Shown here piece after piece: positions 16,262 through 21,549 of a stretch of DNA of 64,000 nucleotides; position 1 is the stretch's first letter, and every line of letters begins with the position of its first letter. A program made the translations under genes and the position numbers. The stretch is taken from the sequence record ON862890.1. One strand, given 5' to 3'. The DNA comes from Escherichia phage A221. The notes under the pieces were generated by a model. It ran no database searches. It saw only the letters and a list, made by a program, of their open reading frames with translations, and was not told the DNA's origin.

Positions 16262-16432
16262 ATGACAGAACCATTCAAGAAAGCTGGTCTAGACACCATC
16301 GACCTCAGCTTTAAACCGAGCGAAACGCTGATGAGTCAGATTGAACTCAATCGCGACTTCCTTGAATATATGCTGGTCAAGCCGGAAGGTGAGGCCGAAG
16401 ACAACCCTGAAGAAGGCAATAACGATGATTGA
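16262..16432 (+). CDS. small acidic protein (56 aa)
   Basis: Translated by hand (MTEPFKKAGLDTIDLSF...EEGNNDD); stop overlaps vWA start. Confidence 0.3.
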   Translation: MTEPFKKAGLDTIDLSFKPSETLMSQIELNRDFLEYMLVKPEGEAEDNPEEGNNDD

Positions 16433-18626
16433 ATCATTAGAATTTAAGAATGCGGTTGCGACTGCTGCCCCGTCCAACCATGTAATCGTTGTAGACATTT
16501 CTGGCTCTATGTACCGTGCACTCCCTGAAGTCCGTAAGCATCTGAAGGAGAACCTGCCTTCCCTGGTGAAACCGGAAGACACTGTGAGTGTTCTATACTT
16601 CTCATCTCGTGGCGACTTTGGCACTGTGTTCGCTGGTCGCCAGGTTAGTGCTGCGTCTGACCTGAGCGAGCTGAACAAACTGATCGACCGCTTCCTACAA
16701 CCATCTGGCTGTACTGGTTTTGTTGAGCCGTTGAAACTGGCGATGGACACTGCTCGTGGCCTGAAGAAGCCTGGCTATGTCAACAACCTGGCGTTCATGA
16801 CTGACGGGTATGACAACTGCTGGCGTACCAACGAAATTCTACTGGTTGCTGAGACCCTGCCATTTGCTTTCGATAACATTACATTTATCGAATATGGCTG
16901 GTACTGTAACCGCGAACTGCTGGCGCAGATGGCCGAACGCTCTGGTGCTACTCACGTGTTTGCCGAAGGTCAGACCGAATACCAGACCGAGCTGGAAAAC
17001 GTGCTGAAGTCATCAGTGCCGAAGGTGGTTGTTGATGTGCCTCTGTTATACACCCATGCTATCTATGTTGAAAACGGCGTAGCAACTGTTCTGGCGGTAC
17101 AGCCGGATGAAGACCATCCTATCGGCCACGTGAGCATCCCTGAGAGCGTCACCAAGCTGTGGGTTGTAAACCCTAACATGATCGACCAGATGGATAGCCT
17201 GACGGACATCCAGGCGGCATACGTGCTGGCGTTCTACGGCGTACACATCATGGACGCGGACCTGGTGTGGGCTGCACTGAAGAAAACGGGTGACGTTCGC
17301 TTCATCAAACAGTACAGCAACTGCTTCACCAAGCAGGACTACTCCAACATCAAGAACGATCTGGTTCAGGCGATTGTTGACGACCAGCTGCGCGGCGTTG
17401 ACGGTATTGACTATGACCTGGTTCCAGCTGAAGATGCGACCACCGTCGTTGATGTGCTGACGTACCTGGCTGAAGCTGGTGTGCCTGTTGCTACCAAGCA
17501 TCCGATGTTCTCCTATAAGAGCATCGGGCGCGGTACTGTGCAGAAAACCGACGACACCGAAGACAAGCTGGCAGAACAGATCGCGAATGCTCAGTCCAAA
17601 GAAGAGCGTAAAGCCCTGGCTCTCAAGCTGGCAGAGCACGAAGAGTGGAACCCGACGTTCGAACCTACCAACGACCTGGGTGTTGTGCCAATCAGCGATT
17701 TGGTCTATAACTCCGAGCGCCCGAACATCAGTGTGCGTACAATTCAACACGGTACTGTGGCTGTGCCTGAATTCGCACAGAAGAAGTTTGGCCTGCCTGA
17801 AGAACTGGATACTTTCCAGTGGCGCAACTACACCATCGTCAAAGACGGTATCATTAACGTGAAGACTCTGCCGTTCAAGGCTGATATCGAAGTTGTACAG
17901 AAGCTGATCGAAATGGGTGTCCACGTGTTTGGTGGTCCGGAAGTGTTCATCCTGAACCTGGAAAGCGTACCGCTGGTCAACCGCGCCATGGTCAAAAACA
18001 TCAGTGCTGCTCAGTTCTTTGCGGATAATGTCCGTCTGGAAGCCCTGAAAGGCAAGCAGAAGGTGCTGAAGTTCTATCGAGACGCCCTGGTTGGTAAGGG
18101 CAACGCCAAAGGCCTGGCAGTACAGTACGGCGCTGAGGCGGCCGAGTTCCTGTCCTCCTACGGCATCCGCGATTACGGCTTCTCACCGAAGACTGAGACC
18201 AAAGAGTCTACCGACTTCTACATGAGCCGTGAGCTGAACGTGAAGATCGCTGGCGCTTCTTCTCTACCGTCTATCGCAGCGGTACAGAAGAAGATTGCCG
18301 AGAACAAGAAACTCAATGCTGGTGACTTGTTCATCGCCAATGCGCTGAAGGAGTACGAAGCATTCGTGAAGTCTCCTATGATCACTGCCGTGCCTGAAGC
18401 CTTACAGAAACAGCTGATCGAAAACTGGATCGACGCTGCTGCCAAGGCGGCCATCACCGAAGTCCGTGCCCTGAACAAGACACTGTCTAAAGTGGTGTAT
18501 GGTATCGTTGCTGGCCACGGCTGGTTCACCGACCTCGACCTGGAAGAGTCCACCATGGAAGTTGAAGTGGATGGCGTGAAGTACAAGGTCACTGCCGAAC
18601 TGACAGAGAAAGAAATCAAAATCTAA
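16425..18626 (+). CDS. large protein with N-terminal von Willebrand factor A (vWA) domain (734 aa)
   Basis: MIDAS-like VVDISGSM and downstream FMTDGYDN; about 500 aa C-terminal region unassigned; start at internal ATG. Confidence 0.7.
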   Translation: MIESLEFKNAVATAAPSNHVIVVDISGSMYRALPEVRKHLKENLPSLVKPEDTVSVLYFSSRGDFGTVFAGRQVSAASDLSELNKLIDRFLQPSGCTGFVEPLKLAMDTARGLKKPGYVNNLAFMTDGYDNCWRTNEILLVAETLPFAFDNITFIEYGWYCNRELLAQMAERSGATHVFAEGQTEYQTELENVLKSSVPKVVVDVPLLYTHAIYVENGVATVLAVQPDEDHPIGHVSIPESVTKLWVVNPNMIDQMDSLTDIQAAYVLAFYGVHIMDADLVWAALKKTGDVRFIKQYSNCFTKQDYSNIKNDLVQAIVDDQLRGVDGIDYDLVPAEDATTVVDVLTYLAEAGVPVATKHPMFSYKSIGRGTVQKTDDTEDKLAEQIANAQSKEERKALALKLAEHEEWNPTFEPTNDLGVVPISDLVYNSERPNISVRTIQHGTVAVPEFAQKKFGLPEELDTFQWRNYTIVKDGIINVKTLPFKADIEVVQKLIEMGVHVFGGPEVFILNLESVPLVNRAMVKNISAAQFFADNVRLEALKGKQKVLKFYRDALVGKGNAKGLAVQYGAEAAEFLSSYGIRDYGFSPKTETKESTDFYMSRELNVKIAGASSLPSIAAVQKKIAENKKLNAGDLFIANALKEYEAFVKSPMITAVPEALQKQLIENWIDAAAKAAITEVRALNKTLSKVVYGIVAGHGWFTDLDLEESTMEVEVDGVKYKVTAELTEKEIKI

Positions 18627-18632
18627 TCCAAC

Positions 18633-18657
18633 GGGCGGGGCAACCCGCCTTTCTTTG
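18633..18657 (+). terminator. rho-independent terminator
   Basis: Stem GGCGGG/CCCGCC, loop GCAA, then TTTCTTT. Confidence 0.5.
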
Positions 18658-18668
18658 GGAGAAGTAGC

Positions 18669-18992
18669 ATGAGCAGTAAACCAACATATGTTGAAGTCAT
18701 GCGTCATCTGGCTCAGTACGCCACCGACAATCTGAATATGGATCTGTGGCGTGACGATGACAAGCGCAAATTGCTGGACGACGTGGCATCTCAGAACGAG
18801 GACGCCCTGGACAAGCTGGCTGGCCTCCGTACCAAGAAAGACCTCGGTGGTGACGAACTGGATGCCATCGAAATCGTAATGGAACTAGAAGAAGAGTTTC
18901 AGGTCGAAATCGACGACGGGTGGCTAGGTAGTAAAGGCGATGACCCGACCATGGGTGAACTCGCTGAACTCGTGGTTGCCCTGCGCAAATAA
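18669..18992 (+). CDS. acyl-carrier-protein-like protein with Glu in place of the phosphopantetheine-attachment Ser
   Basis: DLGGDELDAIEIVMELEEEFQVEID parallels ACP [24 protein letters not shown]; GGGAG RBS. Confidence 0.55.
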   Translation: MSSKPTYVEVMRHLAQYATDNLNMDLWRDDDKRKLLDDVASQNEDALDKLAGLRTKKDLGGDELDAIEIVMELEEEFQVEIDDGWLGSKGDDPTMGELAELVVALRK

Positions 18993-18998
18993 CAGAAG

Positions 18999-19029
18999 TC
19001 CCCAACAAACGTTGGGGATTTTTACTTTT
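18999..19029 (+). terminator. rho-independent terminator
   Basis: Stem TCCCCAAC/GTTGGGGA followed by TTTTTACTTTT. Confidence 0.65.
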
Positions 19030-19034
19030 AGGGG

Positions 19035-19063
19035 TTTACTTCCTCTAAGGAATGTCCTATTAT
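19035..19063 (+). promoter_or_regulatory. sigma70-like early promoter (TTTACT-N17-TATTAT)
   Basis: Exact 17-bp spacing; directly downstream of terminator. Confidence 0.45.
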
Positions 19064-19114: not shown

Positions 19115-19354
19115 ATGAAGAACAAAATGGTCGAAACTTCAGTAGAGATTGATCGCAATTGGGGATTGCTCCGCGCTAAAGGGTTCCGTCGTGTGTATGC
19201 GACCAAAGAAGTCTACGCACAGCGCCGTGACGTTATCATCAGCAAGAAAGGCAAAGAGTGGGTTGCTGAAGAAGTTGATGTCGAGACAGGCATCGTAGGA
19301 AAGGTAAAGGCCAAGGCCGTGATCCTCTTCGCTCTTCTGAAGCACATCAGTTAA
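19115..19354 (+). CDS. hypothetical protein (79 aa)
   Basis: TTGAAAGGTAAGATTATATC-ATG initiation motif. Confidence 0.45.
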   Translation: MKNKMVETSVEIDRNWGLLRAKGFRRVYATKEVYAQRRDVIISKKGKEWVAEEVDVETGIVGKVKAKAVILFALLKHIS

Positions 19355-19413
19355 TTCTATAACTTTGGGCGGGGTATGATTACCCCGTCTATTTGAAACC
19401 AAGAGACTATATC

Positions 19414-19788
19414 ATGAAAAAGTTAATCCTCGCTGTTGCCCTGCTGGGCGCTTCCTTTGCTGCTGTTTCCGCCCCTCCTGTCATCACCGGAGTGTCTACC
19501 AACGGTGTTTATGCTTTCAAGGCGTATGGCCAAGACCTCGTTCTGTATAAGAACGGGAAGATGATTGAGCGCTGCGTATCAGACGACGTGAATCGTGGGA
19601 TCGACAATCAGGGTAGCCCATACGTCCTGGACATCTATTCCTGCTCCAACGGGACGAAGTCCTTTGGCGTCAAGACCTTTGGCAACGTCGCCGACGGTGG
19701 CTGGGGCTTCATGTTCGAAACCCGCAACCACCACCCGGTCAAGACCATGCAAGAAGAGTTCTTGATCTCTGTCGGGGGTACGTTATGA
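19414..19788 (+). CDS. secreted protein (signal peptide)
   Basis: N-terminal MKKLILAVALLGASFAAVSA; conserved AGAGACTATATC-ATG motif. Confidence 0.5.
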   Translation: MKKLILAVALLGASFAAVSAPPVITGVSTNGVYAFKAYGQDLVLYKNGKMIERCVSDDVNRGIDNQGSPYVLDIYSCSNGTKSFGVKTFGNVADGGWGFMFETRNHHPVKTMQEEFLISVGGTL

Positions 19789-20264: not shown

Positions 20265-20714
20265 ATGTTCCTTACATCTTTTATTGACTGGTTGAACATC
20301 ATTAACGGCCTGAGGATTCCTGTTGGGAACCTCGGGCTTTCTCGTTCTTCTATGCCGCAAATCGATGCCGACAAACAAGAAGATTTTCACAAATATCTTG
20401 AAGACAACGGCGTGTCCATAGATGCTGTGCAAGTGCCCATCAAAATGCTTCGTCTCACCCAGAACGAAATCAACAAGATGAAGGTCTGGAAGATCATGAA
20501 GAACATCAGAAATAAGAAACCTATGGGTCGAGTTTGGGTGTCTTCTGACAATTACGTTGTTGACGGTTCTCACCGATTTGTCGCTGCGTTGAACATGGAC
20601 GGCAAACAGCGCATGAAGGTCTACAAAGTTGATTTGCCAGCGATGGAATTTGTTAAACTCGCTAAACAGTTTCAGGGTGTGCGATACAGAACGGTCTCAG
20701 ATTCGAGATACTAA
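20265..20714 (+). CDS. hypothetical protein, possible ParB-like nuclease domain
   Basis: GAGGTG RBS; motif VVDGSHRFVAAL resembles ParB/Srx DGxHR; weak. Confidence 0.45.
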   Translation: MFLTSFIDWLNIINGLRIPVGNLGLSRSSMPQIDADKQEDFHKYLEDNGVSIDAVQVPIKMLRLTQNEINKMKVWKIMKNIRNKKPMGRVWVSSDNYVVDGSHRFVAALNMDGKQRMKVYKVDLPAMEFVKLAKQFQGVRYRTVSDSRY

Positions 20715-20715
20715 T

Positions 20716-21549
20716 ATGGACGTCTATTCAGAACTTATCGAAATAGGAGCGAAACGTCATTTCGTAAACAAATATCTTTCGCTCATTTCTTCTTTTAGTC
20801 ATTACCAAGGCGTCGGGGAGAAGCATCACATATTACCTGTGGCATTGTTCCCCGAATATGCCACGGAATACGAAAACATCGTCAAACTGCCTCATAGGGT
20901 TCATTATATTGCCCATGTGTGTCTTGCTCTTGCGTTACCAGGTTCATGTATGGTAAATGCGATTATGATTTTGAAGCGGTTAGATAGTAGAGTCAACTCA
21001 CACCTGTTTGCGAAAATGCGCAAGAGATTCGCCGAAAGGCTTTCTGTGGTGAATGCAGGGGAAAATAATCCCATGTATGGCAAGAAGAGATCCCAGAAGG
21101 CAAAGAAAAAGACCTCGGAGTCTCTTAGAAATTTTTATAAATCTAAAAGAAAAGAAGATCCAGATTTAAAAGAATTTTTCTCGGAAAGGAATTCTAAAAT
21201 AAAACGGGGAAAAGATCACCATTCTTATGGGAATAAATTGACCAATAATCTTACTCCAGAACAAGAACGATGTAGAATAGAATCGGTCACCAAGACTTCC
21301 CGTGAAACCATGCCCTGGGAGAAGCCAAGATGGAAACCAGAAAGGGACAAATGGTGGTGTTGGGCTGCACATATACACTATCACATATTGAAAGGTAAGA
21401 CGAGAGGGGAAGCCCTGAAACAAGTATTCGGTTCCAATGACGCAGAAATTTGGGCACAGGTTCGGCCAATTATTCTACGGTTGGATAACGGTTGGGACCC
21501 TTTAACTTGCGAAAAATGGGTTAATCGTTATGGGGTGGAATACCAGTAA
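20716..21549 (+). CDS. HNH-family homing endonuclease with NUMOD-like repeats
   Basis: HHILPVALFPEY...LPHRVHYIAH HNH core; ENNPMYGKK and HHSYGNK repeats; AT-rich segment around 21100-21260. Confidence 0.65.
   Translation: MDVYSELIEIGAKRHFVNKYLSLISSFSHYQGVGEKHHILPVALFPEYATEYENIVKLPHRVHYIAHVCLALALPGSCMVNAIMILKRLDSRVNSHLFAKMRKRFAERLSVVNAGENNPMYGKKRSQKAKKKTSESLRNFYKSKRKEDPDLKEFFSERNSKIKRGKDHHSYGNKLTNNLTPEQERCRIESVTKTSRETMPWEKPRWKPERDKWWCWAAHIHYHILKGKTRGEALKQVFGSNDAEIWAQVRPIILRLDNGWDPLTCEKWVNRYGVEYQ

Follow-up and report, generated by a model that had tools for sequence, protein, structure and literature searches.

An acyl carrier protein look-alike with an acidic residue in place of the attachment serine in Escherichia phage A221 and its relatives

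In the acyl carrier protein (ACP) of Escherichia coli, AcpP, Ser36 is the attachment site of 4'-phosphopantetheine (Ppant), and phosphopantetheinyl transferases (PPTases) act on the serine hydroxyl. We analysed a 64,000-nt stretch of DNA from Escherichia phage A221 (sequence record ON862890.1), called the window here, which encodes a 107-aa protein that resembles AcpP and has Glu in place of this serine. The closest concept, a Ppant-independent ACP, has been described only for apicomplexan mitochondria. The mitochondrial ACP (mACP) of Plasmodium carries Phe for Ser and functions purely by binding Isd11-Nfs1 (PMC8547962). In E. coli, unmodified ACP is known to act on client proteins as well: apo-ACP inhibits the glycerol-3-phosphate acyltransferase PlsB and stops growth (Keating, Carey and Cronan 1995, as cited in PMC3896788), and MukB accepts apo-AcpP, its ATPase being stimulated equally by apo- and holo-AcpP (PMC8602292). 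Phages also encode serine-bearing ACPs (phrog_5934 and those on many IMG/VR contigs), which are small ACP-fold proteins too, but have kept the DSL motif and are about 80 aa long.

The phage protein shares with the apicomplexan mACP an ACP fold, the loss of the attachment serine and conservation of the protein, a likeness that we regard as a functional analogy with no specific common ancestry. Unlike in the apicomplexan proteins (PMC8547962), where Phe, Cys or Gly occupies the site and makes a hydrophobic contact, the residue in the phage protein is always acidic, and the two losses are independent. The partner of the Plasmodium protein, the LYR protein Isd11, has no known phage counterpart, and its setting is eukaryotic. 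We found no paper on serine-less phage ACPs and none noting the missing serine in the protein of the Ackermannviridae, the phage family discussed below, or investigating that protein. The gene family is known and is named in databases as a carrier, a role that is chemically impossible for the 107-aa protein; in GenBank, many records label the gene 'acyl carrier protein' and at least one 'phosphopantetheine attachment site protein'.

The attachment site and the conserved surface

The open reading frame (ORF) lies where the initial annotation had placed it, on the plus strand with an ATG start, a TAA stop and a length of 107 aa (Table 1), and the Glu that it had noted in place of the attachment serine proved to be a family trait, Glu or Asp being fixed across all full-length relatives. 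Residues 57-81 (DLGGDELDAIEIVMELEEEFQVEID) align without gaps to residues 31-54 of AcpP, with 16 of 24 positions identical, while identity over the whole protein is 28%. The conserved Ser of the D-S-L motif, by which carrier domains are recognized, is absent.

Homologues were collected at two depths. A search of 5.8 billion proteins gave 41 close homologues, and the 28 of these that were aligned at full length (55-97% identical) have Glu (26) or Asp (two) at the site and Ser in no case. More distant full-length relatives, 31-50% identical (P0042-P0047, P0049 and P0062), came from a profile search of 1.84 billion representatives, and all of them have Glu or Asp at the site. No Ser-bearing full-length family member was recovered by this profile search. 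The proteins with Ser that it did return match the core only, the nearest aligning from query residue ~32 or 54 to residue 105, with 41-54% identity over about 50-70 residues. The family alignments contain no conserved Ser or Thr close to site 63.

At the nucleotide level, the site codon was compared across 19 loci and is GAA in 11, GAT in five, GAC in two and GAG in one, with no non-acidic codon. Since the site is restricted to acidic codons, all four of which are in use over these loci, the residue is fixed and under selection for negative charge, which is more than a mere loss of serine. A sequencing error or strain variant was considered as the source of Glu63 and ruled out: the relatives all have Glu or Asp, with Ser at site 63 in none of the full-length ones; four different acidic codons are found; and a single-base error is excluded because turning GAA into a Ser codon takes two or more substitutions. 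Phosphopantetheinylation at the canonical position is excluded on established chemical grounds, and with it canonical carrier function, because the serine is absent and PPTases need its hydroxyl; we know of no PPTase that modifies Glu or Asp.

That the protein is ACP-like, as had been proposed from the letters alone, was borne out both by profile matches and by the predicted fold. The Pfam PP-binding profile (PF00550) matches with an E-value of 1.1e-5 and 26.0 bits, above its curated cut-off of 20.8. TIGR00517 matches with an E-value of 1.3e-8 and 34.6 bits, short of its equivalog cut-off of 70.45; all NCBIfam ACP models score the protein under their cut-offs, and PF14573 gives 25.2 against a threshold of 32. 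A profile built from the family matches more than 100 solved ACPs (top match E 3e-8). The PHROG family phrog_4154, 'acyl carrier protein', is matched over its full length (E 2.4e-57, residues 1-107 against profile positions 1-108 of 108) and is filed under 'moron, auxiliary metabolic gene and host takeover'. The AlphaFold2 (AF2) model, with a predicted local distance difference test (pLDDT) score of 75, has the four-helix carrier-protein fold, and a Foldseek search with it returned leading matches that are nearly all ACPs, with a template modelling (TM) score of up to 0.70 against E. coli AcpP. The net charge of -14 and isoelectric point (pI) of 4.26 are similar to those of AcpP (-15 and 4.05). 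The resemblance to ACPs thus lies beyond chance, and we read the protein as descended from an ACP of type II fatty acid synthesis and no longer a carrier.

Conservation is strongest in helix II, the 'recognition helix' region. Residues D62, L64, I67, E68 and E74 are invariant and D65, M71, E75 and E76 nearly so (at least 90%); the former map to D35, L37, V40, E41 and E47 of AcpP, and the latter to D38, M44, E48 and E49. The acidic residues through which AcpP is recognized by its partners (D35, D38, E41, E47 and E48) are therefore all kept in the family. Recognition of ACP by AcpS requires D35, E41 and E47/48 (bioRxiv 10.1101/2025.01.28.635281). Judged by these columns, the docking surface of AcpP has apparently been retained while the attachment chemistry has been removed.

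Other parts of the protein differ from AcpP beyond the Glu or Asp at the Ser36 position, which leaves no prosthetic group possible. The N-terminal 53 residues comprise helix I followed by an insertion of about 30 residues, and the AF2 model places helices at residues 7-21, 30-40 and 44-51, the last two of which belong to the insertion and are absent from canonical ACPs. A motif, Y7-x-x-V-M-x-x-L-x-x-Y-A-x-x-N-L, is conserved in this part. The helix III loop is three residues longer than in AcpP, with Trp85 and Gly87 invariant, and is followed by a D-D-P-T cap ahead of helix IV.

Distribution and recurrence among phages

Escherichia phages YX22, PC3, AV101 and others share 97-98% identity with the window, and Salmonella phages such as Maynard (Ackermannviridae, Kuttervirus) share about 90%; on its sequence we assign the window to the Ackermannviridae, as Kuttervirus-like. 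A tblastn search with the ACP-like protein found 271 phage records, 270 of them with an alignment over at least 80% of its length. These 270 are the Ackermannviridae-type phages of Salmonella, Klebsiella, Escherichia, Dickeya, Shigella, Enterobacter and Serratia that a DNA similarity search had also returned, with carriers in Kuttervirus, Agtrevirus, Limestonevirus and Taipeivirus. The remaining record, Pseudomonas phage HRDY3, has a partial match to the core only. The contigs of the distant metagenomic relatives (54-138 kb) are also Ackermannviridae-like, with an HMUDK-type kinase and the same gene order. In these searches, the full-length family is restricted to Ackermannviridae.

Recognizing the protein as a serine-less, acid-substituted look-alike corrects the annotation in approximately 270 sequenced phages, some of which are used or have been proposed for biocontrol and therapy. 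In virion proteomics of the phage Sajous1, the 'putative acyl carrier protein' turned up a single time, and such weak evidence does not qualify it as a component of the virion.

Outside this family, most of the ACP-like genes on 80 viral contigs have the DSL motif. Glu at the site was nevertheless found in unrelated IMG/VR loci, namely L029 (7920-8156), L071 (7920-8162), L083 (7977-8213), L040 (8058-8300) and L044, although the query profile itself favours acidic residues at this column and the frequencies of Glu and Asp elsewhere should not be over-read. The protein of L083 resembles AcpP with S changed to E only. Ala occupies the site in L033, L034, L038 and L039. Short proteins of ACP length with the sequence 'DLGGDELD' (P0052, P0054 and P0057) occur among small phage-like genes. 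Sporadic metagenomic ACP-like proteins with Glu or Asp were also seen, but they are mostly singletons on short contigs, plus one from Streptomyces, and are uninformative. Near the other Ser-less viral look-alikes no common theme was found, the neighbours being small hypothetical genes only. Taken as a whole, the pattern suggests that phage ACPs have become non-carriers repeatedly and independently, and the recurrence of the Ser-to-Glu change in ACP-like genes of unrelated phages suggests that the phenomenon is general and not a single oddity.

The D-(D)-P-T cap ahead of helix IV is also common to a set of Ser-bearing metagenomic proteins (P0058, P0061, P0063, P0065, P0072, P0073 and P0103). 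These may belong to a sister group, still competent as carriers, that gave rise to the serine-less family.

Candidate modes of action

Because the carrier chemistry is gone and the docking surface of helix II is kept, the most likely mode of action would be protein binding via the preserved helix II. Tentatively, and with somewhat more doubt than confidence, we favour a model in which it is a dead-end mimic of host ACP and keeps an ACP-binding protein of the host occupied. After infection, the phage protein would dock as a look-alike of host ACP on one or more such proteins and block or redirect them, the candidate targets being PlsB, AcpS, LpxA/D, MukB and the IscS machinery. The Glu or Asp would imitate the negative phosphodiester charge of holo-ACP, and the 53-residue N-terminal extension would add contacts, lending the specificity and affinity needed to compete with abundant host AcpP. 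The inhibition of a client enzyme by E. coli apo-ACP, which likewise has no prosthetic group, is a physiological precedent for such a decoy. Unlike apo-ACP, which is the host's own unmodified protein, the phage protein has evolved separately, is permanently unmodifiable and has extra structural elements. If the model is true, it would represent a new way in which phages turn off or divert the lipid or chromosome metabolism of the host, and the protein would be a natural high-affinity probe or inhibitor of ACP-client interfaces, which are antibiotic targets.

Several observations weigh against host-ACP mimicry. Few proteins of E. coli are as abundant as the host's AcpP (PMC3896788), which disfavours simple bulk titration, and a gene that is read through a terminator-like hairpin (see below) would struggle to titrate anything unless one target were bound far more tightly. 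Docking on AcpP clients is not guaranteed, given the three-residue insertion at helix III, the invariant Trp85 and the insertion of about 30 residues. The AF2 model is of moderate confidence, with no residue reaching pLDDT 90. Finally, strict adjacency to a gene for a von Willebrand factor A (vWA) protein with a metal-ion-dependent adhesion site (MIDAS) offers a partner within the phage itself.

A broader version of the mimicry model is doubtful, though worth stating: in Ackermannviridae and, independently, in several other phage lineages, the ACP of the host would have been made into a permanently unloadable 'holo-ACP phosphomimic', with the acidic residue in place of the phosphoserine linkage, that specifically jams a single ACP-dependent host hub, for example membrane lipid synthesis at PlsB or AcpS, or the handling of the chromosome by MukBEF. 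If this were true, it would be a previously undescribed host-takeover strategy by mimicry of a cofactor protein.

The vWA neighbour gives rise to an alternative that we consider unlikely, in which the ACP-like protein is a dedicated subunit or ligand of the vWA protein and the ACP fold is merely a binding module. In integrin-type vWA domains, a ligand Glu or Asp completes the metal coordination of the MIDAS, and the same role would fall, with similarly low probability, to the exposed acidic residue that opens helix II. The invariably acidic character of the former Ser site suits a MIDAS ligand, and the vWA protein has the DxSxS, T and D of the motif, with DxSxS conserved in relatives. Its gene is also the immediate upstream neighbour in all relatives inspected, even where the ACP-like protein is only 31% identical, at a gap of 37-52 nt that leaves no room for a promoter. 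However, the whole region is syntenic in these phages, which makes the adjacency weak evidence, and the two genes part company elsewhere. Homologues of the vWA protein are present in 503 phage records, which range from Ackermannviridae and Straboviridae (Slopekvirus) to Pseudomonas phage pf16, Bacillus phage AR9 and Rhizobium phages, whereas matches over most of the ACP-like protein occur in Ackermannviridae-type phages only (270 of 271 records). Around the vWA homologues of Slopekvirus, pf16 and AR9, the three that were inspected, the flanking 4 kb contain no ACP-like ORF, nor does a vWA gene lie within 8 kb of the Ser-less look-alikes on other viral contigs. An obligatory link between the two, as judged by co-occurrence, is ruled out by this decoupling outside Ackermannviridae. 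The AF2 model of the vWA protein (pLDDT 87.8) matches the PDB through the generic vWA domain only, residues ~200-733 matching nothing, and the comparison shows no recognizable ACP-binding enzyme domain. An acidic residue plugging the metal site is thus attractive but unsupported, and the recurrence of Ser-to-Glu changes without a vWA neighbour points to an advantage that is independent of the neighbouring gene in Ackermannviridae.

Three other explanations fare worse. A polyanionic decoy of a generic kind, for instance a nucleic-acid mimic or an anti-defence protein, whose descent from an ACP would be incidental, would suit a small, highly acidic product encoded among early or middle replication genes and placed by PHROG in a host-takeover category. 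We regard it as improbable, since conservation is focused on specific helix II residues of ACP and not on overall charge, and known DNA mimics are absent from the fold matches; a PADLOC scan also gave no match, although PADLOC covers defence and not anti-defence proteins. It is very improbable that the protein still serves a phage biosynthetic pathway as a carrier, with the modification on a different residue or attached by a non-canonical linkage. The GenBank labels and the passing Pfam PP-binding score favour such a role; against it stand the lack of Ser at the site in every family member, the lack of a conserved Ser or Thr nearby, the want of any known PPTase for Glu or Asp, and the neighbours examined, among which no acyl-ACP-using enzyme, PPTase or synthetase was recognized. 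Loss of the catalytic residue would also fit a remnant, a phage ACP that once worked and is now decaying without function, but we give this almost no credence: the full-length ORF is retained in about 270 genomes and many metagenomic contigs, its motifs are invariant down to 31% identity and the site codon varies among acidic codons only. This conservation pattern already effectively refutes the remnant.

Transcription unit and neighbouring genes

The features of the locus are collected in Table 1. The gene is situated in the replication region, with its early and middle genes, near those for the clamp loader, RegA, helicase, RNase H and late sigma factor. The initial annotation had credited it with its own ribosome-binding site (RBS), which is indeed present as GGGAGAAG, and had set it between two terminators. 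Both hairpins exist, but the gene is not insulated by them, the upstream one ending 18 nt ahead of the ATG. Because these 18 nt leave no room for a promoter, the gene must, on the arrangement seen here, be transcribed by read-through together with the upstream vWA gene. We found no Ackermannviridae transcriptome in the literature.

Table 1. Coordinates of the ACP-like gene, its parts and its flanking elements in the window
Feature	Position	Strand	Basis
vWA-domain protein, 733 aa, phrog_2426	16422..18626	+	Pfam VWA E 6.9e-6; complete MIDAS motif
GC-rich hairpin and short T tract (TTTCTTT) in the 42-nt gap between the vWA and ACP-like genes	18633..18656 (stem-loop 18633-18650)	+	Folding
Shine-Dalgarno sequence GGGAGAAG	18657..18664	+	Read from the sequence, ~7 nt ahead of the ATG
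ACP-like protein gene (phrog_4154)	18669..18992	+	ATG start, TAA stop, 107 aa, without attachment serine
N-terminal 53 residues: helix I and ~30-residue insertion	18669..18827	+	AF2 helices, conservation, alignment limits of relatives
Helix II 'recognition helix' region, residues 57-81 (DLGGDELDAIEIVMELEEEFQVEID)	18837..18911	+	Most conserved part of the family
Glu63 codon GAA, at the position of AcpP Ser36	18855..18857	+	Sequence; acidic codon in all 19 loci
Loop with helix III and helix IV cap, D83-G-W85-x-G87-x-x-x-D91-D92-P93-T94	18915..18950	+	Invariant or near-invariant columns
Intrinsic-terminator-like hairpin TCCCCAAC-AAAC-GTTGGGGA followed by TTTTTACTTTT	18999..19029 (stem 18999-19018)	+	Ends the transcription unit

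The spacer between the two genes has the same layout throughout, a hairpin, then a short T-rich tract, then the RBS, over 37-52 nt (window 18627-18668; loci L001, L003-L015, L084-L086 and L090). The hairpin is kept in all relatives with differing stem sequences, and single-sequence folds give it free energies of -13 to -19 kcal/mol. Its role could lie in attenuation or in mRNA stability, by which it would set the ratio of the two products.

The start listed for the vWA ORF, a TTG at 16341, is probably too early; the ATG at 16422 agrees with the PHROG profile and with the homologues. The vWA and ACP-like ORFs are in the same reading frame.

Right behind the terminator of the ACP-like gene, a sigma-70-like promoter (TTTACT-17-TATTAT) is found at 19035-19063 on the plus strand, and probably starts the next unit at 19115..19354 (79 aa, phrog_804). 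A 131-aa ORF follows at 19393-19788 (+; phrog_5474). Its probable start, MKKLILAVALLGASFAAVSA, resembles a signal peptide, and if it is one, the product would be secreted or periplasmic. Further downstream, a 149-aa protein encoded at 20265-20714 (+) has a weak ParB-like match (phrog_1033, E 5e-4) and a match to phrog_2859 with E 8.5e-45, and the 3' end of its gene is overlapped by a 306-aa ORF at 20629-21549 (+). Related genomes vary in length near 20265-21549, with matches broken into two to four pieces, which suggests a mobile insertion.
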